A DNA stretch of 64,000 nt, from IMG/VR virus record IMGVR_UViG_644736364_000008; one strand, written 5' to 3'. This document shows positions 3,724-30,745 of the stretch, in pieces. Made by a program: the position numbers and the translations under genes. The DNA is from a virus (taxonomy: Duplodnaviria; Heunggongvirae; Uroviricota; Caudoviricetes). Numbering within the stretch: position 1 is the stretch's first letter; the number at the start of each line of letters is the position of its first letter. The notes under the pieces were generated by a model. It saw only the letters and a program-made list of their open reading frames with translations. It was not told the DNA's origin and did no database searches.

Positions 3724-4097
3724 GCTGCTACCTGTTGCGCCATCTGATTACGGGTGATCCAGAAGGCAATAACGGTCAGTAGATAAAAGACCAGGGTAAT
3801 AGCCCACCCCGTCCAGGCGAGACTTACAACAATCAGCAATCGCATCACCCAACTGGTAAATACGTTTTCTTTTCGAGTAATTGTCTTCAGCAAAGATGCC
3901 CTTAACTCCTGCCAGAGCGGGCCATTCTTAATTAACGCAGCCAGTGCTACCGGAATTACCGCCCATGTCAGCAAACAGGCTACCCAAACGCCGGACGCTG
4001 CCAGTACCGGAAAAATCCCCTGCGGATACACCATTGCTGCGATTAACAGCGCCATCCATAACATCAGAAACAGTCCGCTGATTAATTTCTTTTTCAT
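3720..4097 (-). CDS. lysA: LysA-like lysis membrane protein (start chosen at MKKKLISG; ORF extends to 4169)
   Basis: Several hydrophobic helices; SD gggag upstream of ATG at 4097; position after endolysin. Confidence 0.55.
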   Translation of the reverse strand: MKKKLISGLFLMLWMALLIAAMVYPQGIFPVLAASGVWVACLLTWAVIPVALAALIKNGPLWQELRASLLKTITRKENVFTSWVMRLLIVVSLAWTGWAITLVFYLLTVIAFWITRNQMAQQVAA

Positions 4098-4098
4098 T

Positions 4099-4611
4099 TC
4101 AGTTTGCTCCCTGTAAACACCAGGCCATCTCCCGCGCACGGCGGTTATCCAGCCCCTGATTAAAAACACCTTTCACATAAACCCAGCGCGGCAACTGTCG
4201 GCATGCATCCGCCCAGCGCCGCTGATTGAGCAATTTCACCAGCGTGGAACTACAGGCATTGCCCGTCCCCACGTTGAAGGCAAACGACACCGTAGCGTCA
4301 TACACCTTCTGCGGCGGCTGTTGCTTCACACACCTTTCCAACGCCCGCTCCACTCGTAGCACGTTGGAGATCAGCCCTTCAGCTGCCTGTCGTTCCGTAA
4401 TAATTTTGCCGGGAATGACGCCCGACGTATTACCAATGCCGTCGGTCCAGACACCCGCGCTGCACTGATACGGCTGCAGACGACAGCCTTCATAATCAGC
4501 GATCAGTTTCAGTCCCTCCTCGGAGGTGTGAAGCTGCTGAAACCCCGGCAGCGTGGCAGCAATAGCCAGCACGGCCCCGACAAGGCAGCGTTTAACGATT
4601 GATGGATTCAT
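4099..4611 (-). CDS. K: Endolysin (P2 K-like lysozyme, signal-anchor type)
   Basis: 170 aa; N-terminal hydrophobic anchor; EGxxLxAYxCxAGVWT lysozyme-like motif; P2 gene order. Confidence 0.85.
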   Translation of the reverse strand: MNPSIVKRCLVGAVLAIAATLPGFQQLHTSEEGLKLIADYEGCRLQPYQCSAGVWTDGIGNTSGVIPGKIITERQAAEGLISNVLRVERALERCVKQQPPQKVYDATVSFAFNVGTGNACSSTLVKLLNQRRWADACRQLPRWVYVKGVFNQGLDNRRAREMAWCLQGAN

Positions 4612-4807
4612 AGTCCTCCCGCGAGATCTGCCCGTCGCGCAGAAGCTGGTAGGCTTTGTGTTTGTAGTACCAGTTGATAGCCAGCATCAGCACACCGATC
4701 ATCAGGCCGCCCAGCGTTGAGGCATCCTTGATGGACAAATCGCCCAGCCAGGCCAGCACGACGGCGATGCAATACGTGATAAAGGCGCTGATTCGCTCAA
4801 GCGTCAT
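4592..4807 (-). CDS. Y: Holin (P2 Y-like)
   Basis: 71 aa, two TM helices, charged C-terminus; immediately upstream of endolysin. Confidence 0.7.
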   Translation of the reverse strand: MTLERISAFITYCIAVVLAWLGDLSIKDASTLGGLMIGVLMLAINWYYKHKAYQLLRDGQISREDYESINR

Positions 4808-18931: not shown

Positions 18932-19564
18932 ATGTTAAACATCAGAATGGGTTCCGATACGGGAGGTAAGGCAGCTATTGAGAGGCTGCTTGAGGCTTAT
19001 GGATTCACAACTAAGCAGGCATTAAGCGAGCACCTGAATGTCTCAAAAAGTACTATGGCAAACAGAGTGTTACGTGACAGTTTTCCTGCTGACTGGATAA
19101 TTCAGTGTGCACTAGAAACCGGTGTTTCGTTACTTTGGTTAGCCACTGGACAGGGAAGCATGAAAGAAGGATACGAGTCTGAGAAAAGATCTCATAACGA
19201 GAACAAACAAGCAATTAAACCGTTATCCAAACTCATAACTCCATCTATTCCTAAAGGAACCTTGGAAAATGGACAACTCAGTATTGATGAAGAGATTTTC
19301 CTAGACCACAGCATATTACCTGCAGATTATGAAGAATCGATGTTCTTAGAAACCCCTACTGATTGTTATCTCATCGATAAATCAGTTAAACAAGTCAGCA
19401 ATGGATTCTGGCTTATCAATATTGATGGAATGATTATTATTGCAAAAATCATGCGGATTCCCGGCAATAAGATTGTAGTAAATCAAGATGAAGCGTCTTT
19501 CGAGTGCTCTGCCGATGATGTGGAAGTTATTGGGCGTGCAGTCAAAGTAATAAAGAGTATCTAA
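18932..19564 (+). CDS. cI: CI immunity repressor
   Basis: 210 aa with N-terminal HTH; divergent from apl and upstream of int as in 186. Confidence 0.8.
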   Translation: MLNIRMGSDTGGKAAIERLLEAYGFTTKQALSEHLNVSKSTMANRVLRDSFPADWIIQCALETGVSLLWLATGQGSMKEGYESEKRSHNENKQAIKPLSKLITPSIPKGTLENGQLSIDEEIFLDHSILPADYEESMFLETPTDCYLIDKSVKQVSNGFWLINIDGMIIIAKIMRIPGNKIVVNQDEASFECSADDVEVIGRAVKVIKSI

Positions 19565-19566
19565 AC

Positions 19567-20586
19567 ATGACTGTCAGAAAACAGCCAAACGGTAAATGGT
19601 TGTGCGAGTGCTATCCCAATGGACGCAATGGCAAGCGCGTGCGTAAGCAATTTGCTACGAAAGGCGAAGCCATTGCTTTTGAAAGCTTCACAATGGAAGA
19701 AGTGAACAAAAAACCATGGCTGGGGGAAAAGGAAGATCGGCGACACCTATCAGAATTAATTGAGCAGTGGTATTCCCTGTATGGTCAAACACTCGCAGAC
19801 CCCAAGCGCCTCATAGCGAAACTTAGAATTATCTGTAATGGTCTAGGCGATCCCATCGCTTCAGAACTGACAGCCGGTGACTTTACGAAATACCGCGAAG
19901 CACGGTTAAAAGGTGAAGTACGAAATGAAGATGGCACGTTTATGTCGCCCGTTAAGCCCCGCACGGTAAACCTTGAACAGCGCAATCTATCATCTGTTTT
20001 TGGTACACTGAAAAAGCTGGGCCACTGGTCAGCCCCCAACCCGCTTGCTGGGCTGCCAACATTTAAAATTGCTGAGAGTGAATTGGCGTTCCTGACCCCG
20101 GAAGAAATTAAACGTCTGCTGGATGCCTGCGCCGATTCTCAAAGCTCCAGCCTGCTTTTGATTGCAAAAATATGCCTGGCCACCGGCGCACGCTGGAGCG
20201 AAGCCGAAAACCTGCAGAGTCATCAGGTATCAAAATACCGTATCACTTATACCAAGACCAAAGGCAAGAAAAACCGAACTGTGCCTATTTCTAAGGATTT
20301 ATATGAAGAACTGCCTAAGAATAGGGGGAAGTTATTCACCCCATGCAGAAAAGCCTTTGAGCGTGCAGTAAAGCGAGCCGGTTTAGAACTACCAGAAGGC
20401 CAATGTACCCATGTTCTGCGCCATACATTTGCCAGTCATTTTATGATGAACGGTGGAAATATACTGGTACTGCGCGATATTCTTGGACATGCCGATATAA
20501 AAATGACGATGATTTACGCTCATTTTTCCCCAGATCATCTTGAAGATGCAGTAACTAAAAACCCATTAGCAACCTTGATGGATTAA
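19567..20586 (+). CDS. int: Tyrosine integrase (P2/186 type)
   Basis: 339 aa; C-terminal RHTFASH...GH...Y catalytic motifs. Confidence 0.9.
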   Translation: MTVRKQPNGKWLCECYPNGRNGKRVRKQFATKGEAIAFESFTMEEVNKKPWLGEKEDRRHLSELIEQWYSLYGQTLADPKRLIAKLRIICNGLGDPIASELTAGDFTKYREARLKGEVRNEDGTFMSPVKPRTVNLEQRNLSSVFGTLKKLGHWSAPNPLAGLPTFKIAESELAFLTPEEIKRLLDACADSQSSSLLLIAKICLATGARWSEAENLQSHQVSKYRITYTKTKGKKNRTVPISKDLYEELPKNRGKLFTPCRKAFERAVKRAGLELPEGQCTHVLRHTFASHFMMNGGNILVLRDILGHADIKMTMIYAHFSPDHLEDAVTKNPLATLMD

Positions 20587-20590
20587 GCAC

Positions 20591-21814
20591 ATGCGCAACA
20601 TTATCGAATTAGAACAGATATCGGAAGAACTAAAAAAACATGAACTATTGCAACCCCCATTCATTGCCGAGGGAAAACTAATTTCTGACTTTTCTAAGAG
20701 AGTCGAGTGCTATTTAGAATTAATTGACTCCATTAGAAATAAATATCCTGACAACGAGATAATTAAACAAGTAAAGATTCGCACAAAATCAATAATATAT
20801 TTATCTGATAAAATAATAGAAACTCTTAAGCTATTTTTAATAGGAAATGTTAAAGAAGCTTATAAAAAATTCGATTTGGCAATTACCAAGTCATCAATGC
20901 ATACTCATCTTTATAAGATGACTGTTCCTCTAACTAAATTATGCAACCCACACACCCCTTTATTTCGCGTAAGGAAAAGTGAGTGCATCCTAAAACAAAG
21001 AGAAGAATTATTTCATATACCATTTAAAAATAGACATTTAGTTAGCGCACAAAGATTTTCTGTATCCGGTCTTCCATGTTTATATCTTGGAACATCAATA
21101 TTTGTATGTTGGCAAGAAATGGGAAAACCTGACTTTGATAAACTTTACATATCTTCCTTCATATCCGATAAAGAAAATTCAAATATAAGAATTTTAGATC
21201 TTGGGTACAATTTAACATCTGCACTTCGTACAAAACCGGGAGATCTTTGGTATTCATTCGAACAAGGTTCAGATGATGATTACGATCTAAATAATGATAA
21301 TTTCATGGATCAAATTAATGATAAAATTTCAAAGTTGATTGCATGGCCTTTAGTCCTTGCATGTAACTATACAAAAGATAATGAAAACGCAAGTTTTAAT
21401 AAAGAATACATAATACCAAACCTATTAATGCAATGGATTAGTAGTGACAGAAACAAAAATATATCAGGGATATCGTATCGATCAACAAAGATATTAAACC
21501 AAAAAGATAGCGATATTGGGATTAATGTAATTATCCCCCCAAAAATAGAAAACATAGTTGAAACCAATGATACCCACTGTCCTGTTTTAAAAAAAATATT
21601 TAGAGTTACAAACCCTGTTTCCTGGACTGTGTTTAGTACACTAGAAGCCACCCCCTATCTATACAAAAATAATTTTAATTTTTCGACCTATAATCCCGCA
21701 AAAGGATGGATTGAAGACTTTGATGAATCCCTTGTTGAACATTATGAAAATACCACTTTTAGAAAAGTTGAACTCCTTATTCATCAAATGATGAAGTATG
21801 AATATTTAAAATAA
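20591..21814 (+). CDS. AT-rich cargo protein (407 aa) with central RES-like domain
   Basis: Strongly AT-rich ORF between int and att; LFRVRKSE...QRFSVSGLPCLYLGTSIFVCWQE resembles the RES (Arg-Glu-Ser) toxin signature. Confidence 0.75.
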   Translation: MRNIIELEQISEELKKHELLQPPFIAEGKLISDFSKRVECYLELIDSIRNKYPDNEIIKQVKIRTKSIIYLSDKIIETLKLFLIGNVKEAYKKFDLAITKSSMHTHLYKMTVPLTKLCNPHTPLFRVRKSECILKQREELFHIPFKNRHLVSAQRFSVSGLPCLYLGTSIFVCWQEMGKPDFDKLYISSFISDKENSNIRILDLGYNLTSALRTKPGDLWYSFEQGSDDDYDLNNDNFMDQINDKISKLIAWPLVLACNYTKDNENASFNKEYIIPNLLMQWISSDRNKNISGISYRSTKILNQKDSDIGINVIIPPKIENIVETNDTHCPVLKKIFRVTNPVSWTVFSTLEATPYLYKNNFNFSTYNPAKGWIEDFDESLVEHYENTTFRKVELLIHQMMKYEYLK

Positions 21815-21930: not shown

Positions 21931-21975
21931 ATGTAGGAATTTCGGACGCGGGTTCAACTCCCGCCAGCTCCACCA
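21931..21975 (+). ncRNA. ssrA: 3'-terminal 45 nt of tmRNA gene ssrA (attachment-site remnant)
   Basis: atgtaggaatttcggacgcgggttcaactcccgccagctccacca matches the enterobacterial ssrA 3' end; upstream sequence is not ssrA. Confidence 0.7.
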
Positions 21976-22103
21976 ATCATGATTGGACGGTGTAAGGACA
22001 ACACCAACAAAAACAGGAAGTTAGAAGTCTCAGCAGGACACCGACCAGACGGTGAGGAGACATAAAAGGATACGCAAAGGAGCCGCGGCTCCGAAGTGAA
22101 ATG

Positions 22104-22129
22104 AAAGCCCGCTGATGCGGGCTTTTTTG
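22104..22129 (+). terminator. Rho-independent terminator
   Basis: aagcccgc-tgat-gcgggctt followed by TTTTTT. Confidence 0.5.
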
Positions 22130-22360
22130 CTTCTTCTCTTTAGCCTGATTCGACACTCTCAATGCGGCCATAAACAACAACCCACTTTTCTTATACCGTA
22201 GCCTGTCCCCCTCTTCCTGCTTTCTAACCATAACAGATGTGAGCGTTTGCTATGAGCGATATATAGTCATTCGTACCCTCCGATACTAATCATCACAGAA
22301 ATTAATATATTCATTCCTTACTGAAAAGCTATGAAGTAGATATATAGGATTGGGGCGCGT

Positions 22361-22558
22361 ATGGCACTGGACAGTTATGCATCTCCGAATATTATTCCGG
22401 AGCTAAGACAACCGAATGCCGCAGCAGGTAAGATCACGCTAGGGGGGCTGGACAGAATGGCTGTTACGCCCAGTGTGAAGAAAAGAAGGCTAAGTATGGT
22501 AGAATTTCCATACGCACAGACCTTGTTATCCGACTATACAGCCTGGAAGGCACTATGA
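22361..22558 (+). CDS. Small ORF (65 aa) coupled to the downstream nuclease-like gene
   Basis: Stop overlaps next ATG (ATGA). Confidence 0.3.
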   Translation: MALDSYASPNIIPELRQPNAAAGKITLGGLDRMAVTPSVKKRRLSMVEFPYAQTLLSDYTAWKAL

Positions 22559-23343
22559 CAAATCTACAACTGGAAGAAAGATTTAGGGCGCTTGAGAAAG
22601 ATTACGATGCGCTCATTTCCACAAAATATACTGCGCAGAACGTTCTCACTCACACTATGGAAACCTATGTTGATTCTGGTAAATATAAAAACTGGATCGC
22701 CAGAGTGAAAAAGTTAATAGAGGACAGCTACGGAAAAGAGTCTGATTATTACAATGACTTCAATACTGTAAACAGCAGGTGGTCTTCTAATTACAATACA
22801 CTGATCAAAAGTTATAAACCGTTGTTTGATGCGGCGAGAGATGATCTTGCGCACTCTGCTGTCAGTACTAATACTCCTCAAGAAGGTTCGCCGCTGAGCC
22901 TCGTACTTAATATTCTTAACAGGTTTCCGACCTTTGTTCGCCAGTTAAAGAGGCGGTACAACGGCCGTGCGCCGCTTGAAGTTAATGATGAGTATGACGT
23001 ACAGGATTTGATTTATGCACTGCTGACGCTTCATTTTAATGATATTAGGGCGGAAGAGTATACCCCCAGCTTTGCGGGCGCGGCCTCAAGACAGGACTTT
23101 CTTTTGAAAAAAGAGAAAATTGTGATAGAGGTGAAGAAAACCCGTGAATCTCTGGGAGCGGGTAAAGTTGGTGGAGAGTTGCTTATTGATATGGCGCGCT
23201 ACCGCGCTCACCAAGACTGCGATACGTTGATCTTGTTTGTATATGACCCGGATTGCTACATAAATAATCCTTTGGGCGTGAAAACCGATCTGGAATCTAA
23301 AGACGCGGAAGGAAAAGTGAAGGTTGTTATTGCGCAGTTCTGA
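22555..23343 (+). CDS. PD-(D/E)xK nuclease-like protein (262 aa) with N-terminal coiled-coil region
   Basis: C-terminal EVNDEYDVQDL ... KIVIEVKK pattern fits a D...(D/E)xK restriction-endonuclease-like core. Confidence 0.65.
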   Translation: MTNLQLEERFRALEKDYDALISTKYTAQNVLTHTMETYVDSGKYKNWIARVKKLIEDSYGKESDYYNDFNTVNSRWSSNYNTLIKSYKPLFDAARDDLAHSAVSTNTPQEGSPLSLVLNILNRFPTFVRQLKRRYNGRAPLEVNDEYDVQDLIYALLTLHFNDIRAEEYTPSFAGAASRQDFLLKKEKIVIEVKKTRESLGAGKVGGELLIDMARYRAHQDCDTLILFVYDPDCYINNPLGVKTDLESKDAEGKVKVVIAQF

Positions 23344-23430
23344 CACGCTTAAGTGTCACCTTACAGGATTAGGTTTGCGGCCGTGCCAGCAGGACGAGCA
23401 TGAAAAAGGCCGCTGGCACGGCCGGATTTG

Positions 23431-23724
23431 TCATCTTTGCCAGGTCAAATCAAAATCTACGTGAAAATCCGCAGGCTTAAGCTCGCAACTGCCACCACGC
23501 CCAATTAACGACGTTATGTTTACAACGTTTGAACCTGTTGAGATGGCAAGTTGAGTGTCATCTGTAAACGTGATGATTAGCATTTCAGTCTGATGAACCT
23601 GTACTCCAGTTTTCTGAAAACCAATCTGGACAGATTTCACCGTTTTCCCAACCATTTCACGGGCTTGATTGATAGAGTAATTAGCTTCAACTTGTAGGTC
23701 ATTCCTGAACTTGGGTAGTGTCAT
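23431..23724 (-). CDS. Hypothetical protein (97 aa)
   Basis: ORF downstream of the GIY-YIG gene on the same strand. Confidence 0.45.
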   Translation of the reverse strand: MTLPKFRNDLQVEANYSINQAREMVGKTVKSVQIGFQKTGVQVHQTEMLIITFTDDTQLAISTGSNVVNITSLIGRGGSCELKPADFHVDFDLTWQR

Positions 23725-23934
23725 TTTACATCCTCTTTAGTGAAGTTTTCGCTATTTAAATCAGCAGCATTCCTTTTAAATCACTGGCATGTCAGCAGTG
23801 GATAGTCTGAGTGTAACGTCCAGTGAGGGGAATAAATATTGGTCAGACTTTGCACAAAAGAGCCAACTATCGCGGGCTCTCTCTCATCATGTGCGAAAAT
23901 TGACCACAATATGAAATCCAGTTCCATTCCGAAA

Positions 23935-24759
<825 letters not shown>

Positions 24760-24857
24760 TCAATTGACAACTTATAATCCCTACTAGTTAGCATTATGAT
24801 TTCCAGAGTGAGGAATATAAAAATCTCTGTTTCTGGCACATAACAGCCCTTAAGATC

Positions 24858-24915
24858 GTAGCTCGCCATCATGGGGTGTCGGGGGGCGGAGGTTCAAATC
24901 CTCTCGTGCCGACCA
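24858..24915 (+). tRNA. 3' fragment (about 58 nt) of a tRNA-Pro(GGG)-like gene; 5' acceptor/D-arm absent
   Basis: ggaggttcaaatcctctcgtgccgacca (T-arm, 3' acceptor, CCA) with anticodon-loop-like tcatggggtg; no complementary 5' acceptor strand. Confidence 0.6.
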
Positions 24916-25156: not shown

Positions 25157-25335
25157 ATGCGTATTGAGATCTCCATAGCCAAAGACAAAATGACCAAATG
25201 CCAAACGGCGCTGTGGACGCGTTAAAGGAAGAATTAACCCAACACATTGGCAAGCGTTATGACGATGTGGAGATGATCGTAAAAGCCACCAGCAACGATA
25301 GTTTTTCAGTTAGACATACTGCAGATAAAGATTGA
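25157..25335 (+). pseudogene. DinI-family gene disrupted by a frameshift
   Basis: Frame 1 gives [14 protein letters not shown] then stops; a second frame starting at 25198 gives [38 protein letters not shown] (DinI-like core). Confidence 0.45.
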
Positions 25336-25759
25336 GCTAAAACTTTCGTTCAGGAAACTCTGAATGATACCTGAGAGTCTACTGAAGAGTTGTTTGTTCA
25401 CTAGTTAGCACGTAGGAAATCATTCAATACTCGCACTATCGGAAGTTCACCAGCCAGTCGTAGCACGTCCTTGCAAACGACGTGCCTACGGTTTCAATCA
25501 CCTCTCACCATCAATTCTATCAATAATAATTAAACAGCGCCTAGACAAAATAAATAACAACAAGTCAACAACCTCGACAGGATGCCGATGGGATGATGAA
25601 GAGATAAGAAAGAATAACCAGTAAAGCCCTAAAACGTCAGCGTTCAGACGCGTTTTTTACTTAATCGGTAACAAATACGTTGTATCATAGCAAAATAAAA
25701 TGATTGTTCTAAATCAGATTAACTCCTCACTTTTGTACAATGTCGCTTACAGGTATACC

Positions 25760-27649
25760 ATGAAATCCGAGACGCTAACTGTCCAACAACTTTTTCAAGA
25801 CCGCCGACAATACTGTGTTCCATTCTATCAACGTGCCTATGTATGGACTCAGCAAGACCAGTGGTCAGCTCTACTGGAGGATATCCTAGAGAAAGTACAA
25901 TCCCGGCTCTCGGGTACAAAACCAACTCCCCATTTCCTTGGTGCGGTTGTACTGGAACCTCAATCAAAAAAAGGATTATTAGGTGTAGATTCCATACATA
26001 TTATTGATGGTCAGCAACGATTGACCACTCTTCAATATGTTCTGGCATCCATCCGATTAGCATTACGTGCTACGGATCTTTCCAGCTTAGAGGCTCTCAT
26101 TTCGCCTTGCCTGAAAAACTCAAACGAAGACACAATGCGAAATAAAGAAGTAGAACGCTTCAAACTGTGGCCAACTTTTCGGGATCAAACTCATTTTATT
26201 CAAAGTTTTAATGTTGAAAATATTGACGATCTCCGGGACGTATTCTCTGATAGTTTCACGCAGCATGGTACGTTGCGTAAGCATTTTAATCACCCGCCAT
26301 CACTAGAAGCATTATGTTTTTTTACTGAAGCCTTTATAAAATGGATTAAAATAGAAAACCACTCACCACAAGAAAATGCTGTAGCTCTAATTGAGGCTGT
26401 CTTAACAGATCTGAAACTGGTAAGCATATTTCTCGAAGCTGAAGATGATGCCCAAATAATTTTTGAAACATTAAATGGGCGAGGGGCGGAACTTCATGCT
26501 ACGGATCTTATTCGCAACTATATCTTTATGTGCGCTGAGCATGAAAATATTAATGCTATTGAATTATATGAAAATGAGTGGAAGAGCTTTGAAGATAAAT
26601 ACTGGTCGGAAAAACAACGCCGTGGACGTATTAATAAACCACGCATGGAGTGGCTAGTACATGCGACATTGCAATCAGAAAGGCAACGTGAAATTGATCT
26701 GTCTCGCCTTTACAATGAGTATCGTGATTATGTAAGTAAGGACTTGTCTTCACAACGAGCAGATCTGCAAGTAAAGCGCCTCAAACAATATGCATCACAA
26801 TATAAAGAATTGGTTGATGGTTTTGGCACAACCCCCATCTCACACTTTGGATATCGCATCGCAGACTATGATGTGACGACACTTTATCCGCTTGCTTTGT
26901 TCATTTCGATAGCTAACATCGCTGATGATGAGAAAGCAGCCATGTATAATGATCTTGTCTCCTACGTAGTACGAAGAGCCGTATGTGGCCTGACGCCAAA
27001 GAATTACAACAATGTATTTATGAATGTATTGCGGCACTTGGCTAAAACGGAAATTTCCAGTGTTGAGTTACGTAATATCCTCAATAACTTAAATGGCGAA
27101 GCCTCACGTTGGCCTGGTGACTCAGAATTTCTCAACGCTTGCATCAATGCTCCACTTTATCCTGGCAGGCTCGACGCACCGAAAATGCGCTCAATGTTAA
27201 CGGAACTTGAAAGAGAACTTTGTCGCCAAGTAAAGACAGAAAAGCCTGATGTTCCAAATCTTTCTAATCTCGATATCGATCATCTTATGCCTCAAAGTTG
27301 GTATTCCTGTTGGCCTCTCGAAAATGGTCGTATGGTGACAAATTCAGATGCTACGGTATTGAACCAAATTGTTCTGTCTGGAACCGATCTTACCCCTGAA
27401 CAGCTACTGGTAAGGAAACGGCAACAAGCGATATCTACTTTGGGAAATCTAACTTTGCTTAACCTTAGCGTAAACCGTTCTGTTCAGAATGCTGTATTTC
27501 TGAAAAAACGTGATGCTCTCATCGTCCACACCAATCTACGACTGAACATTCCACTTATAGTTAAGGATAAATGGGATGAGGATGAAATCCTGGAGCGGGG
27601 TAAAAAGTTGGGGGAAATTGCATTGAAAGTATGGCCAAAACACGATTAA
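25760..27649 (+). CDS. GmrSD-family type IV (modification-dependent) restriction endonuclease-like protein (DUF262 + DUF1524/HNH)
   Basis: N-terminal IIDGQQRLTT motif and C-terminal DIDHLMPQSW...GNLTLLNLSVNRSVQN His-Me finger; alternative ATG at 25700. Confidence 0.8.
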   Translation: MKSETLTVQQLFQDRRQYCVPFYQRAYVWTQQDQWSALLEDILEKVQSRLSGTKPTPHFLGAVVLEPQSKKGLLGVDSIHIIDGQQRLTTLQYVLASIRLALRATDLSSLEALISPCLKNSNEDTMRNKEVERFKLWPTFRDQTHFIQSFNVENIDDLRDVFSDSFTQHGTLRKHFNHPPSLEALCFFTEAFIKWIKIENHSPQENAVALIEAVLTDLKLVSIFLEAEDDAQIIFETLNGRGAELHATDLIRNYIFMCAEHENINAIELYENEWKSFEDKYWSEKQRRGRINKPRMEWLVHATLQSERQREIDLSRLYNEYRDYVSKDLSSQRADLQVKRLKQYASQYKELVDGFGTTPISHFGYRIADYDVTTLYPLALFISIANIADDEKAAMYNDLVSYVVRRAVCGLTPKNYNNVFMNVLRHLAKTEISSVELRNILNNLNGEASRWPGDSEFLNACINAPLYPGRLDAPKMRSMLTELERELCRQVKTEKPDVPNLSNLDIDHLMPQSWYSCWPLENGRMVTNSDATVLNQIVLSGTDLTPEQLLVRKRQQAISTLGNLTLLNLSVNRSVQNAVFLKKRDALIVHTNLRLNIPLIVKDKWDEDEILERGKKLGEIALKVWPKHD

Positions 27650-27672
27650 TGCAATTAATAAAATGATTATAG

Positions 27673-27692
27673 TGGCCTTACATTAGTAAGGC
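27673..27692. terminator. Hairpin between the convergent GmrSD-like gene and the invertase remnant
   Basis: ggccttac-atta-gtaaggcc stem-loop. Confidence 0.35.
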
Positions 27693-27744
27693 CGCTACTC
27701 ACTATTAAATACTTTAATTTGCATCAAGAACAGCAGTGTCAGCC

Positions 27745-27873
27745 CTAGGTCTCGGACTTTGTACCGCTTATCTTGTCTTCAAAAATCAGCTCGCATCCTG
27801 CACAGTTCAGCGCATTACGTTGTAGATCTGTGTTCTGGTCATTTGTTGACACACGTACATAGCCAATAAGCAT
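27745..27873 (-). pseudogene. Truncated Gin/Pin/Hin-family DNA invertase (N-terminal 42 codons only)
   Basis: Minus-strand translation MLIGYVRVSTNDQNTDLQRNALNCAGCELIFEDKISGTKSET then stop; nearly identical to the Gin/Pin N-terminus including the catalytic Ser; rest of gene absent. Confidence 0.75.
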
Positions 27874-27899
27874 GGTAGATCTCCCTGACAAAAGCAGGA

Positions 27900-28394
27900 A
27901 TGATGCCATTTGCTCGTTATTTCTGCATTTTCATAAACGTTGGTTTGGGAGAAGCGGCAAAACGGAATGTGGGCAACGGGGAAAACCAAATCCCTGATAT
28001 GTCTTTCTGGACGGTTACTGGTGGCAATGGAAATTTTGTGATTCGTCAACCTGACGGGCTAATCATTCAGATGGTTACTGTAAGTATAAGCGGCCCAGTG
28101 GCGATGAATGGAATGACTGATAATGCTTATGCCATCACAGGTTCTAATAAGTCTTATATTGCCACAGCCACATTGCCCTTTGTATTTCCTAATAAGGTGC
28201 TGGGCGTTATCCCTCTGGTATCAACAACAGCTTATGGTGGTGTATCCAGTAATATTACAGGTTCATACGCGACGGCGGTTTGTTCTTTTGCCGCTGTCAG
28301 GGGGAATAATACGATTGTGTTCAAAGTCGACAAACCACTGAATGCAGCCTTTCCTTCAGATACCAGCGTCTCAGCGTTAATCATTGGACGGTAA
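27900..28394 (+). CDS. Alternative tail-fibre variable C-terminal domain (Sv'-like), lacking its own constant N-terminus
   Basis: ORF begins inside the crossover site (encodes NVGLGEAA, paralleling NLGLGEG in the expressed fibre); followed by its own tfa. Confidence 0.55.
   Translation: MMPFARYFCIFINVGLGEAAKRNVGNGENQIPDMSFWTVTGGNGNFVIRQPDGLIIQMVTVSISGPVAMNGMTDNAYAITGSNKSYIATATLPFVFPNKVLGVIPLVSTTAYGGVSSNITGSYATAVCSFAAVRGNNTIVFKVDKPLNAAFPSDTSVSALIIGR
27930..27957. repeat. Inversion crossover site (gix/hix-like), invertase-proximal copy
   Basis: aaacgttggtttgggagaag is the inverted copy of cttctcccaaaccaaggttt at 29855-29874. Confidence 0.6.
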
Positions 28395-28396
28395 TA

Positions 28397-28840
28397 ATGA
28401 ACTCAGTATTCTTTTCACCCGGAAGTAAAAGTTTTTATCTGCAAGAATTGTTTCCAGAATATGAGGATGCGGGAACGCTTCCTGATGATGTTATTGAAAT
28501 TACCAGAGAAACATATGAGCAATTTCTTGGTCTGCATCCAGAAGGGAAAGAAATTGGCGCTGACAGTTCAGGACGGCCAGTATGGATTAATTCCCCACCC
28601 CCTTCAAAAGAGGATGAGGTGTTGACGGCTGAAATGAAAAAAATATCTTTGGTTTCAGAAGTCAATACCTACATCAATACCCATCAGTGGCCTGGCAAAG
28701 CTGCTATTGGTCGTCTGAAAGGCGAGGAACTGGCGCAATATAATTCGTGGCTGGATTATCTGGACGCACTGGAACTGGTCGATACTTCCTGTGCGCCAGA
28801 TATTGAATGGCCTACGCCTCCGGCAGTTCAGGCCAGATGA
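28397..28840 (+). CDS. Tail fibre assembly protein (alternative, U'-like)
   Basis: 147 aa; tail-fibre-assembly-like C-terminus; inverted orientation. Confidence 0.7.
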   Translation: MNSVFFSPGSKSFYLQELFPEYEDAGTLPDDVIEITRETYEQFLGLHPEGKEIGADSSGRPVWINSPPPSKEDEVLTAEMKKISLVSEVNTYINTHQWPGKAAIGRLKGEELAQYNSWLDYLDALELVDTSCAPDIEWPTPPAVQAR

Positions 28841-29414
28841 CATCCGGCGCTGTGCTGGTATTTGTTGCCGTCACCGCGTCAATGTAATCCAGCACAGCGT
28901 TAAGCCGGGTTGTTTCTGCCTGCATCAGCTTCCGTCCGGCCTGTAATTTCAGCTGAATCAGACCGATGGAAGCCATTGCAGCATCAATCAGTGACTGACG
29001 CTGTGCTTCTGCCGCGTCTACTGCGGCGCTATGCTGTGCCTCAGTATCGGTCACCCATTTCTCACCATCCCATTTATCGTATGGCGTTAATGGGGCAATA
29101 GTGGTTGTATTTTCGGGGTAATCACCCGGTGCTGTGATTTGTTTTGATTCTCCCGTTTCGGTGTTATAGACGATTTCACCGCGATGGTCTGGCACATATT
29201 CCCATGAATTTAAATTCACAGAACGACAGATAGCATAACCCGCCTTATGTATACCTGGTGCATCCAGACAGGAATATGCCGGGATACCAACACCAACGGC
29301 AAGATATTCACTTGAAGTGGAAATATATTCCCGAGTTTCACCATCATAGTTATAAACGGTAATATCCCCTGCCTTTGTAGCAACAAGTCCACTATTTAAT
29401 ATTGCTTTATCCAT
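28812..29414 (-). CDS. Tail fibre assembly protein (U-like)
   Basis: 200 aa immediately downstream of the tail fibre gene. Confidence 0.7.
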   Translation of the reverse strand: MDKAILNSGLVATKAGDITVYNYDGETREYISTSSEYLAVGVGIPAYSCLDAPGIHKAGYAICRSVNLNSWEYVPDHRGEIVYNTETGESKQITAPGDYPENTTTIAPLTPYDKWDGEKWVTDTEAQHSAAVDAAEAQRQSLIDAAMASIGLIQLKLQAGRKLMQAETTRLNAVLDYIDAVTATNTSTAPDVIWPELPEA

Positions 29415-30157
29415 TATGCTGCTCTCACGATATAGTTAAATGCAATGTTGCGTGGACGGGTATCGACGGGGTTAACGGCCACTGTACCCGACACGGACTG
29501 GTCATTACCGTTGCTAACGGTAATGTTACTACTGGTTGATCCAATCCCTACTGAATCGGTAAATTTAGCACCTGAGCCGCTCAAAGTTCCCGAGATGATA
29601 GCTAGCTCCACATAAAAAGTACCTACAGTTGGCTCTTGTGTTGACAGCACCGCACGCCTTGAATCAACGCCGCGCCCATCATCCCAGCCACGAATAAACT
29701 CACCACGTAAATCAGGCAATTTATTTGTCGGATAAGCCTTTGCCAGTTCCGGGTATTCTTCAGCAGAAAAAGCCGCACCGTTGCATTTCAGCCAGCCTGT
29801 TGGCGGTGTGGCTGAAGGCCATGGAACAGGCACACCAACAGGTAATGCAGAGCCTTCTCCCAAACCAAGGTTTTCGAGAGCCGTTTTCACCGTGCCGTCC
29901 GATTTGATATCGCTAAACGGATTCTTGCGGCTTAACAGCAGCGCACGAAGCGCGGTAAGCAGCTGGTCGTGCCGCGCCTTCTCCAGACTGGCACCGGATG
30001 CCTCCACCACGCTGCAGAGTTCTTCCTGCAACATGTCAAAGTAGTCATCATCCAGATCGGTGGCAGGCGTGCCTGTCTGGGGGTTACCACGGGTAAAACC
30101 GTTCTTACCCGCGCCGAACTTATCCTTCTGCGCGGTTTTCGTGTCTATACGATGCAT
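29414..30157 (-). CDS. Tail fibre protein (constant N-terminus plus currently expressed variable domain with tail-collar motif)
   Basis: 247 aa; [22 protein letters not shown]...[17 protein letters not shown] tail-collar signature; crossover site inside the gene. Confidence 0.8.
29853..29880. repeat. Inversion crossover site (gix/hix-like) inside the tail fibre gene
   Basis: ccttctcccaaaccaaggttttcgagag; core aaaccaaggtttt matches the hix/gix core and is inverted relative to 27930-27957. Confidence 0.6.
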
Positions 30158-30160
30158 GGA

Positions 30161-30745
30161 TTACTCCGGATATTTAAAAATTACGTAGGTATGCGAAGGG
30201 CAGAGTTTGTTAAGCACACATTCGACGACGGTGTCGCCCCAGATACGCAGCGCGGAATCACAGGGATCGCCACATGTCATCCAGGTGCTGTTGGTGGCGG
30301 CTGGCATGTTGACCTGCCAGTAATACCGCCATTCCGGCGCATTCACCGCGTCAGTACAGGCCGATGAGCAGGTGAACGTGCTTTTGTCGTATCGCGTGAT
30401 GGTGGCGTCTGGTCTGCCCAGGGCAGCAAGCTGTGCAAGGTAAAAATCCTCATTGATGCCGCCCGCCAGGTTAACCTTCGCATCCAGTCGTTGCTGACGC
30501 TGGCGAAGGGTCTGTGTTCCTGCGGGAATACATTCATCCGGCAGGCCGCACAGACGCTCCCAGCGATTTATCAGTTCGGTGGTGGTGCGCGGATCCAGCT
30601 CCCGCATCAGGGCATCCGCACGCTGATGAACGCGGGTTAATGACTGTGCCGCACCGGCAATCGCCGGATCGCTGGCTGACCACGCCGGACCGGGCGGCAG
30701 CAGTGCCGACAACAGACGGATGTAATCATCGTTTGTCACGCCCAT
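30161..30745 (-). CDS. Mu gp48-like baseplate / tail-fibre attachment protein
   Basis: 194 aa between baseplate J-like gene and tail fibre; Mu-like order. Confidence 0.55.

Follow-up and report, generated by a model that had tools for sequence, protein, structure and literature searches.

We found that the gene at 25760-27649 of a 64,000-nucleotide Caudoviricetes sequence (IMG/VR virus record IMGVR_UViG_644736364_000008; this whole stretch is referred to below as the window) encodes GmrSD, an already characterised type IV modification-dependent restriction enzyme, and is therefore not new. The gene belongs to a cassette carried at the tail-fibre end of a prophage of e14/SfV-like type, which occupies the ssrA site. 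This cassette appears to have replaced most of the phage invertase gene pin in one old event, and the adjoining tail-fibre switch still flips, probably by means of a borrowed invertase. Taken as a whole, we regard this account of a known enzyme in an altered switch as highly probable. The window is Escherichia coli DNA of sequence type 95 (ST95), which from 21931 to at least 50201 is 99.993% identical to strain UTI89 (28,271 bp including gmrSD).

The gmrSD gene and its product

25760-27649 (+): gmrSD, that is UTI89_C2960 / EcoUTI89GmrSD (the 'UT enzyme'); 629 aa, single chain

The coordinates coincide exactly with those of UTI89_RS14420, which RefSeq labels 'DUF262 domain-containing protein'. 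A first-pass annotation, made from the sequence alone, had proposed a GmrSD-like type IV restriction gene with a DUF262 DGQQR motif and a C-terminal His-Me finger, and had suggested a profile search for DUF262 and DUF1524. This prediction was borne out by Pfam, which matched GmrSD_N (PF03235, DUF262) at residues 8-256 (E 6.8e-34) and GmrSD_C (PF07510, DUF1524) at residues 451-619 (E 3.5e-20). The DGQQR motif lies at residues 83-87, the C-terminal His-Me/HNH motif reads D507-H508-L-M-P and is followed by N522, and the PADLOC profile mREase_IV scores 1415 bits across the full length of the protein. A search of PDB sequences at E <= 0.01 gave 9jfl, a distant DUF262 chain, as its sole match (3.5e-08); no BrxU chain passed this threshold.

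The protein is the published UTI89 enzyme. He et al. (2015) described UTI89_C2960 as EcoUTI89GmrSD, a single-chain GmrSD (PMC4437046); the UTI89GmrSD row in the Suppl. Fig. S1 of that paper shows 117 residues, all identical to residues 1-117 of our protein. Identity to the Eco94-class allele is 93% (587/629), matching the figure given by the same authors, who proved D507, H508 and N522 to be essential in Eco94GmrSD, 93% identical to UTI89GmrSD. T-even phages including T2 and T6 are restricted by the UT enzyme, which the T4 inhibitor IPI* fails to block; modification-dependent restriction is published for Eco94GmrSD as well, and these GmrSD genes are positioned just beyond prophage tail-fibre genes (PMC4437046). 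The gmrSD product would thus act as a prophage-borne phage-exclusion nuclease cutting the DNA of T-even phages at hydroxymethylcytosine (hmC) or glucosyl-hmC, with the N-terminal DUF262 domain probably responsible for nucleoside triphosphate use and recognition, and the C-terminal His-Me finger for cleavage.

Divergence between the allele classes of this gene (the window against loci L006, L007 and L008, described below) is unevenly distributed: the 5' 900 nt, which encode the DUF262 half, are 87-95% identical, the 3' 990 nt 97.5-98.6%. This pattern fits diversifying selection or recombination in the recognition and inhibitor-binding half, and an arms race over inhibitor sensitivity. Elsewhere, gmrSD is often knocked out, by IS3, IS2, ISVsa5 together with IS1, an IS3-family element, a deletion associated with IS903B or, in APEC O1, a frameshift; these repeated knockouts may be a consequence of the toxicity that gmrSD reportedly shows when cloned.

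The invertase stump and the cassette junctions

25416-25496: pin 3'-flank element; its last three bases (25494-25496, TCA on the + strand) correspond to the pin stop codon
25497-27751 (+): gmrSD cargo cassette, ~2.25 kb, with pin-locus sequence at either edge; contains the region upstream of the gene, the gene itself and the hairpin
27670-27697: hairpin between the convergent open reading frames (ORFs); 12-bp stem, minimum free energy -25 kcal/mol, z = -6.05 against shuffles
27728-27751 (-): degenerate pin-like stretch, 24 bp, ~70% identical to pin codons 42-50 (blastn to the pinE of locus L016)
27745-27873 (-): invertase stump (delta-pin); 42 codons plus stop, catalytic-serine region only

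The first-pass annotation had accurately noted an invertase ORF of 42 codons that converges on gmrSD at a distance it gave as 100 bp; the spacing of the two stop codons is 95 bp. Translation of the stump yields MLIGYVRVSTNDQNTDLQRNALNCAGCELIFEDKISGTKSET and a stop, in which 41 residues identical to PinE are followed by one new residue. It matches the Pfam family Resolvase (E 6.5e-09, profile positions 2-47 of 145), and nucleotides 27752-27873 are 97.5% identical to pinE. With 41 of ~184 native pin codons left, the catalytic domain and the oligomerisation helix are incomplete, and a PinE tblastn of the window recovered residues 1-44 only, without the C-terminal helix-turn-helix DNA-binding domain of a Din-family invertase. 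RefSeq describes the UTI89 stump as 'recombinase family protein, incomplete, missing C-terminus'.

Both edges of the cassette could be mapped by comparison with prophages that carry an intact pin. Homology to pinE of K-12 e14, ET210 and ETEC L5_E1779 (locus L016) extends at 95-98% identity from the crossover site through codon 41 and ends at 27752; since the next 24 bp are still ~70% pin-like, the breakpoint lies within 27728-27752. At the other edge, 25416-25496 is 90% identical to ET210 L005 4001-4089, a locus in which pinE occupies 4079-4633 (-), and the matching stretch includes the pin stop codon. As the 5' part of pin ends at 27752 and the stop-codon flank resumes at 25496, the cassette apparently takes the place of pin codons ~42-184. 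The annotation had suggested such a comparison and had claimed that the acquisition of gmrSD truncated the invertase. The junctions mapped on e14, ET210 and L016, with cassette bounds at ~25497-27751, support this claim and sharpen it to a replacement from pin codon ~42-50: on the evidence of the aligned sequences, the cassette probably sits inside pin and was not inserted beside it.

A missing pin 3' end was sought beyond the cassette with an e14 pinE query and gave no match; the ~80-bp element found there lies outside the pin coding sequence and is the 3' flank of other pin loci, beginning with the stop codon. Several hundred E. coli genomes contain this element. A coding sequence called 'capsid protein' or 'nucleocapsid protein' is annotated over it in several RefSeq records, which looks like an annotation artefact. 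The hairpin at 27670-27697 is kept in 4/4 allele classes and is a possible two-way terminator; it was not called by a consensus terminator scan, and promoter and terminator consensus scans of 25300-28000 yielded nothing above shuffled background.

Distribution across genomes

We surveyed 5,426 complete E. coli genomes, 299 of which carry gmrSD and 300 the junction between gene end and stump. Four allele classes, with 90-96% identity to the window in gmrSD, have the same right-hand junction, and the cassette core 25549-27751 is common to all four. A fifth context retains the junction after loss of the gene:

Allele class 1: at ssrA, the window
Allele class 2 (L006): near paoCD/ydfV
Allele class 3 (L007, Eco94 class): at icd; e14-like prophage, with gmrSD in the place held by pinE and mcrA in e14
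Allele class 4 (L008): beside retron Ec67; the baseplate module of this prophage is a different one
Fifth context (L015): lambdoid prophage; gmrSD removed by IS903B, 50 bp of the cassette end and the stump left

Because the same junction recurs in ~300 genomes and at least five prophage backgrounds, the sequences point to a single old replacement event behind all E. coli copies. We propose that one event of illegitimate recombination would have exchanged pin, from ~codon 42-50 to its last codon, for the cassette, and that the delta-pin/gmrSD module may then have reached several prophage types together with the invertible tail-fibre region. Alternatively, gmrSD could have landed in or beside an intact pin, the rest of which was removed by a later, separate deletion, so that the defence gene was not the truncating agent. 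The identity break at 27752 and the degenerate pin-like stretch beyond it do indicate a junction history more complex than one clean cut, and insertion sequences often hit the gmrSD locus. However, no intermediate with a longer pin remnant was found among the ~300 junction genomes and their five prophage backgrounds, and the position of the cassette exactly between the 5' part of pin and the stop-codon flank requires an insertion inside pin, which would already have been inactivating. We therefore consider the two-step history unlikely and retain the single replacement.

The gmrSD gene of Enterobacteriaceae bacterium B14 (77% identical) lies in a non-prophage island by mltC, together with an integrase fragment and a kinase gene. 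No pin is found near this locus, and the DNA it shares with the window is limited to the gene, which would fit an import of the gene from elsewhere. A peptide-pattern scan of genome contigs, with very specific patterns, returned three loci, of which one was informative. Separately, a pin-type invertase of phage vB_EcoM-606R2 (L002, 3983-4297) has been shortened to 104 codons by a different, independent truncation, and it too adjoins a fibre segment that can invert; it may be common for an intact switch to have lost the invertase next to it.

The invertible tail-fibre segment

27935-27954: left crossover site (pix/gix-like), centre TT at 27940-27941; inverted repeat of 20 nt, 95% complementary
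29854-29873: right crossover site, centre AA at 29867-29868
27941-29867: invertible tail-fibre segment, 1.9 kb
27955-28394 (+): alternative fibre C-terminus, silent in the window orientation; weak Gp53-like_C match
28397-28840 (+): tail-fibre assembly gene paired with the silent fibre end; Pfam Caudo_TAP, 5.9e-28
28812-29414 (-): tfaE-like assembly gene paired with the expressed fibre end; Caudo_TAP, 4.4e-30; tfaE in RefSeq
29414-30157 (-): tail-fibre gene; constant N-terminus (101 aa, outside the segment) joined to a variable C-terminus; Pfam Collar domain

The first-pass annotation had concluded that the acquisition of the defence gene destroyed the tail-fibre switch. This is contradicted by the state of the locus in other genomes and in UTI89 cultures. 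The crossover core TTGGTTTGGGAGAAG is the e14 P-segment repeat quoted in PMC12529663, and in-silico inversion showed that either orientation encodes an in-frame fibre of 247 aa with the first 101 residues in common and with its own chaperone gene after it. The junction created by inverting 27941-29867 in silico occurs at 100% identity in 24 genomes (PMV-1, IHE3034, APEC O1 and others), and the window form of the junction in 78. In IHE3034 the flanks are 100.000% identical to the window (6,024 bp on the left, 4,547 bp on the right) and a reversed segment of 1,939 bp is the sole difference. More than one flip is likely, since orientation differs both within O18:K1 (UTI89 vs IHE3034) and within O1:K1 (APEC E16002 vs APEC O1).

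A genome-wide inversion screen of UTI89 by sequencing has reported prophage inversions at 0.9 and 2.9 Mb, confirmed by polymerase chain reaction (PCR) in wild-type cultures, of which one alone adjoins a phage invertase (PMC6458436). Of the three primers published for '2.9 Mb', one lies in gmrSD (27136-27155), one in the invertible segment (29001-29020) and one in ymfQ (30699-30718); the published 2.9-Mb inversion is the window segment. Together, these findings support the conclusion that the switch still flips and that both crossover sites and both fibre/chaperone pairs are intact.

A frozen switch, in which the acquisition of gmrSD killed the invertase and locked the fibre orientation, would agree with the loss of most of the catalytic domain and the whole DNA-binding domain beyond the 41 native codons and with the absence of any further invertase from the 64-kb window by PinE tblastn, but is hardly tenable in view of two orientations among genomes with identical flanks, an inversion detected and PCR-confirmed at this locus in UTI89 cultures, and the intact crossover sites and fibre/chaperone pairs.

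The expressed fibre (29414-30157) can be aligned over its full length with the e14 chimera StfE2, at 74% identity; in the alternative orientation only the constant N-terminus matches. StfE2 blocks T2 adsorption, according to a paper from 2025.

Probable source of the invertase

The segment would be inverted by a Din-family invertase made elsewhere in the cell. UTI89 carries a P2-like prophage at 0.92 Mb with an intact Din-family invertase of 199 aa (UTI89_RS04425, 918974-919573, 77% identical to PinE). This gene adjoins the inverting segment at 0.9 Mb, to which the published 0.9-Mb primers map. When complete genomes were queried with a chimera of gmrSD and the pinE 3' part, a second match appeared in UTI89 and IHE3034, and none in PMV-1 and GN06489; the second match in UTI89 is due to the 199-aa invertase. 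The association between the inverted form and a second pinE-3' match was not significant (7/10 vs 10/26, Fisher p = 0.14).

Inversion across prophages is established in K-12, where three enzymes, PinQ, PinR and PinE, can each invert the e14 P segment (PMC12529663); the repeats of this segment are those of the window. PinQ and PinR were rejected as the trans-acting invertase of ST95, as a query of gmrSD plus pinQ detected no pinQ-like DNA in UTI89, IHE3034, PMV-1 and most ST95 chromosomes. The invertase that acts on the window segment in UTI89 is most likely the 199-aa protein of the P2-like prophage at 0.92 Mb.

Possible function of the remaining stump

The Fis-dependent enhancer of Hin is 65 bp long and lies ~100 bp from hixL (PMC3798978). 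In Din-family systems the enhancer is found in cis in the 5' part of the invertase gene, as stated for Mu by the title of Kahmann et al. (1985). The window stump spans 67-188 bp from the crossover centre, and the position of a Din-family enhancer is therefore retained. Conservation in intact invertase genes is higher over the first 41 codons than beyond them, which a conserved protein N-terminus can explain. One might speculate that the stump has been kept for a cis enhancer and the promoter-proximal crossover site, that gmrSD has placed the switch under the invertases of other prophages, and that both form a two-layer module against T-even phages; we consider this idea unlikely. If it were true, a StfE2-like fibre, switched in trans, would block the adsorption of T2, and GmrSD would restrict the DNA that still enters the cell.

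Observations that do not fit

Several observations weigh against our account of a single replacement and a switch driven in trans. At the cassette borders there are no flanking repeats, transposase genes or mobile-element ends, and no intermediate form was found. The sharp drop in identity at 27752, from ~97% to ~70%, is not explained by a simple single break. The predicted retention of an enhancer in the stump is position-based only, and between allele classes the stump (92-97%) shows no more conservation than the intergenic DNA next to it (93-98%) or the 3' half of gmrSD (97.5-98.6%). Concerning the published inversion, the primer that maps to 27136-27155 has, as printed, one extra A compared with the window, and the three inversions are labelled inconsistently in the text and the figure legend of PMC6458436. 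Finally, the inverted form is present in PMV-1 and in GN06489/GN06758, in whose chromosomes no pinE-like or pinQ-like sequence was detected within the sensitivity of blastn. The inversion in these strains may therefore be inherited from a historical flip, or may be driven by a plasmid or a transient phage.

The same three strains, together with a product sequence that places the crossover merely somewhere in 15 identical bases, could also suggest that the two orientations arose through RecA recombination between the short inverted repeats, or through assembly errors, instead of site-specific inversion in trans. RecA recombines efficiently on homology far longer than 15 bases, and 15 identical bases are too short for its efficient use. 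The inversion is, moreover, frequent enough to appear in ordinary cultures, the repeats are canonical Pin sites that three Pin enzymes invert in K-12, and UTI89 possesses an intact Din-family invertase; all this makes recombination by RecA or an artefact very improbable and argues for inversion by an invertase in trans.

Prophage setting and neighbouring genes

The left part of the window (1-21930) is occupied by a 186/P2-like prophage, arranged in tandem at ssrA, which is absent from UTI89 at the matching site:

11127-12536 (-): 469-aa protein of the P2-like prophage
13797-15884: GPA replication gene of the P2-like prophage
18932-19564: CI-type repressor of the P2-like prophage
19567-20586: integrase of the P2-like prophage
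20591-21814 (+): 407-aa ORF
21931-21975: 45-bp copy of the ssrA 3' end, right boundary of the P2-like prophage

The 469-aa protein has no Pfam match and is matched over its full length by PADLOC PD-T7-1 (E 1.3e-196), which identifies it as a known defence gene in the P2 cargo spot. Neither Pfam nor PADLOC matched the 407-aa ORF, which is flanked by the P2-like integrase and the ssrA repeat in DNA of ~30% GC content; it may be an uncharacterised cargo gene.

Between the ssrA repeat and a proL fragment lies a small island (21976-24856) with three ORFs, and a pseudogene follows towards gmrSD:

22555-23343: 262-aa protein with a DpnII/MboI nuclease domain, resembling the nuclease end of PADLOC 'Aga_Helical-REase'
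23431-23724: 97-aa ORF
23935-24741: PD-T4-3 GIY-YIG protein, E 8.6e-137
24857-24915 (+): 3' fragment of proL tRNA-Pro(GGG), 54/58 identity to K-12 proL residues 19-77
25157-25374 (+): DinI-like pseudogene, described by RefSeq on identical UTI89 sequence as 'frameshifted; internal stop'

ARAGORN found no complete tRNA or transfer-messenger RNA gene in the window, where only the 45-bp ssrA end and the 58-nt proL fragment are present. A proL-like fragment ~30 bp from the pin 3'-flank element is also found in L005, L006 and L008. This suggests that the fragment is a relic attachment site marking an old phage end, and that the ancestral phage used proL for attachment.

A slot for defence genes

The site distal to pin holds different genes in different prophages: mcrA in e14, an OLD/AriA-like ATPase in ET210, retron Ec67 in L008 and, in L016, a PD-T4-3-type GIY-YIG gene that directly follows an intact pinE and is 75% identical to the PD-T4-3 gene of the window. 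The pin-distal site of e14/SfV-like prophages hence appears to be a defence-gene slot with cargo varying by strain, which appears undescribed in the literature searched.

The UT enzyme is a textbook case in the T4 IPI* arms race, to which our identification of the gene adds nothing. What appears undescribed in the literature searched is that every E. coli copy of this gmrSD lineage, in ~300 complete genomes, is welded to the same stump, which implies a single entry into the prophage pool and spread via the recombination-prone tail-fibre region. Likewise undescribed there, as far as it appears, is that a tail-fibre switch need not die with its own invertase but can be driven by a borrowed one. 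Such borrowed-invertase switching bears on 'pseudogene' annotations and on the recent claim that Pin-driven inversions are anti-phage devices. The enzyme is thus known, and its genomic back-story is an undescribed but incremental addition.

Comparison with known systems

At the protein level, the window gmrSD does not differ from EcoUTI89GmrSD, and its relatives are Eco94GmrSD and the EcoCT596 pair GmrS/GmrD. The UTI89, Eco94 and CT596 enzymes are all prophage-borne and adjoin tail-fibre genes, and a neighbouring phage invertase has been noted for CT596 GmrS/GmrD. In the literature searched on these enzymes we found no statement of an invertase stump, a cassette replacement or a universal junction.

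The first-pass annotation had also compared the protein with BrxU. The comparison stands for the architecture, as both proteins combine DUF262 and DUF1524 in two domains, but not for the context: BrxU is BREX-linked, whereas the neighbours of the window gene are prophage tail genes, the DinI pseudogene and PD-T4-3, with no BREX genes nearby, and the closest PADLOC model is the stand-alone mREase_IV. For lack of a BREX context, the comparison with BrxU adds nothing here.

The analogy drawn by the same annotation with mcrA of e14 proved apt, since the Eco94-class gmrSD at icd (L007) occupies the very position of pinE and mcrA in e14. In both e14 and the window, type IV restriction cargo lies between the invertase/tail-fibre switch and the prophage end, and both share the same crossover repeats. 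They differ in that pinE of e14 is intact and mcrA co-directional with it, whereas the window cargo is convergent and most of pin is replaced. McrA and GmrSD themselves are unrelated save for an HNH-type nuclease motif.

The switch of the window resembles Gin/G of Mu, Cin/C of P1, Pin/P of e14 and Hin/H of Salmonella in its two inverted sites, its alternative fibre ends with their chaperones, and an invertase start ~67 bp outside the site. It differs from these Din-family switches in its resident invertase, which is a 42-codon stump, and therefore depends entirely on an invertase made elsewhere.

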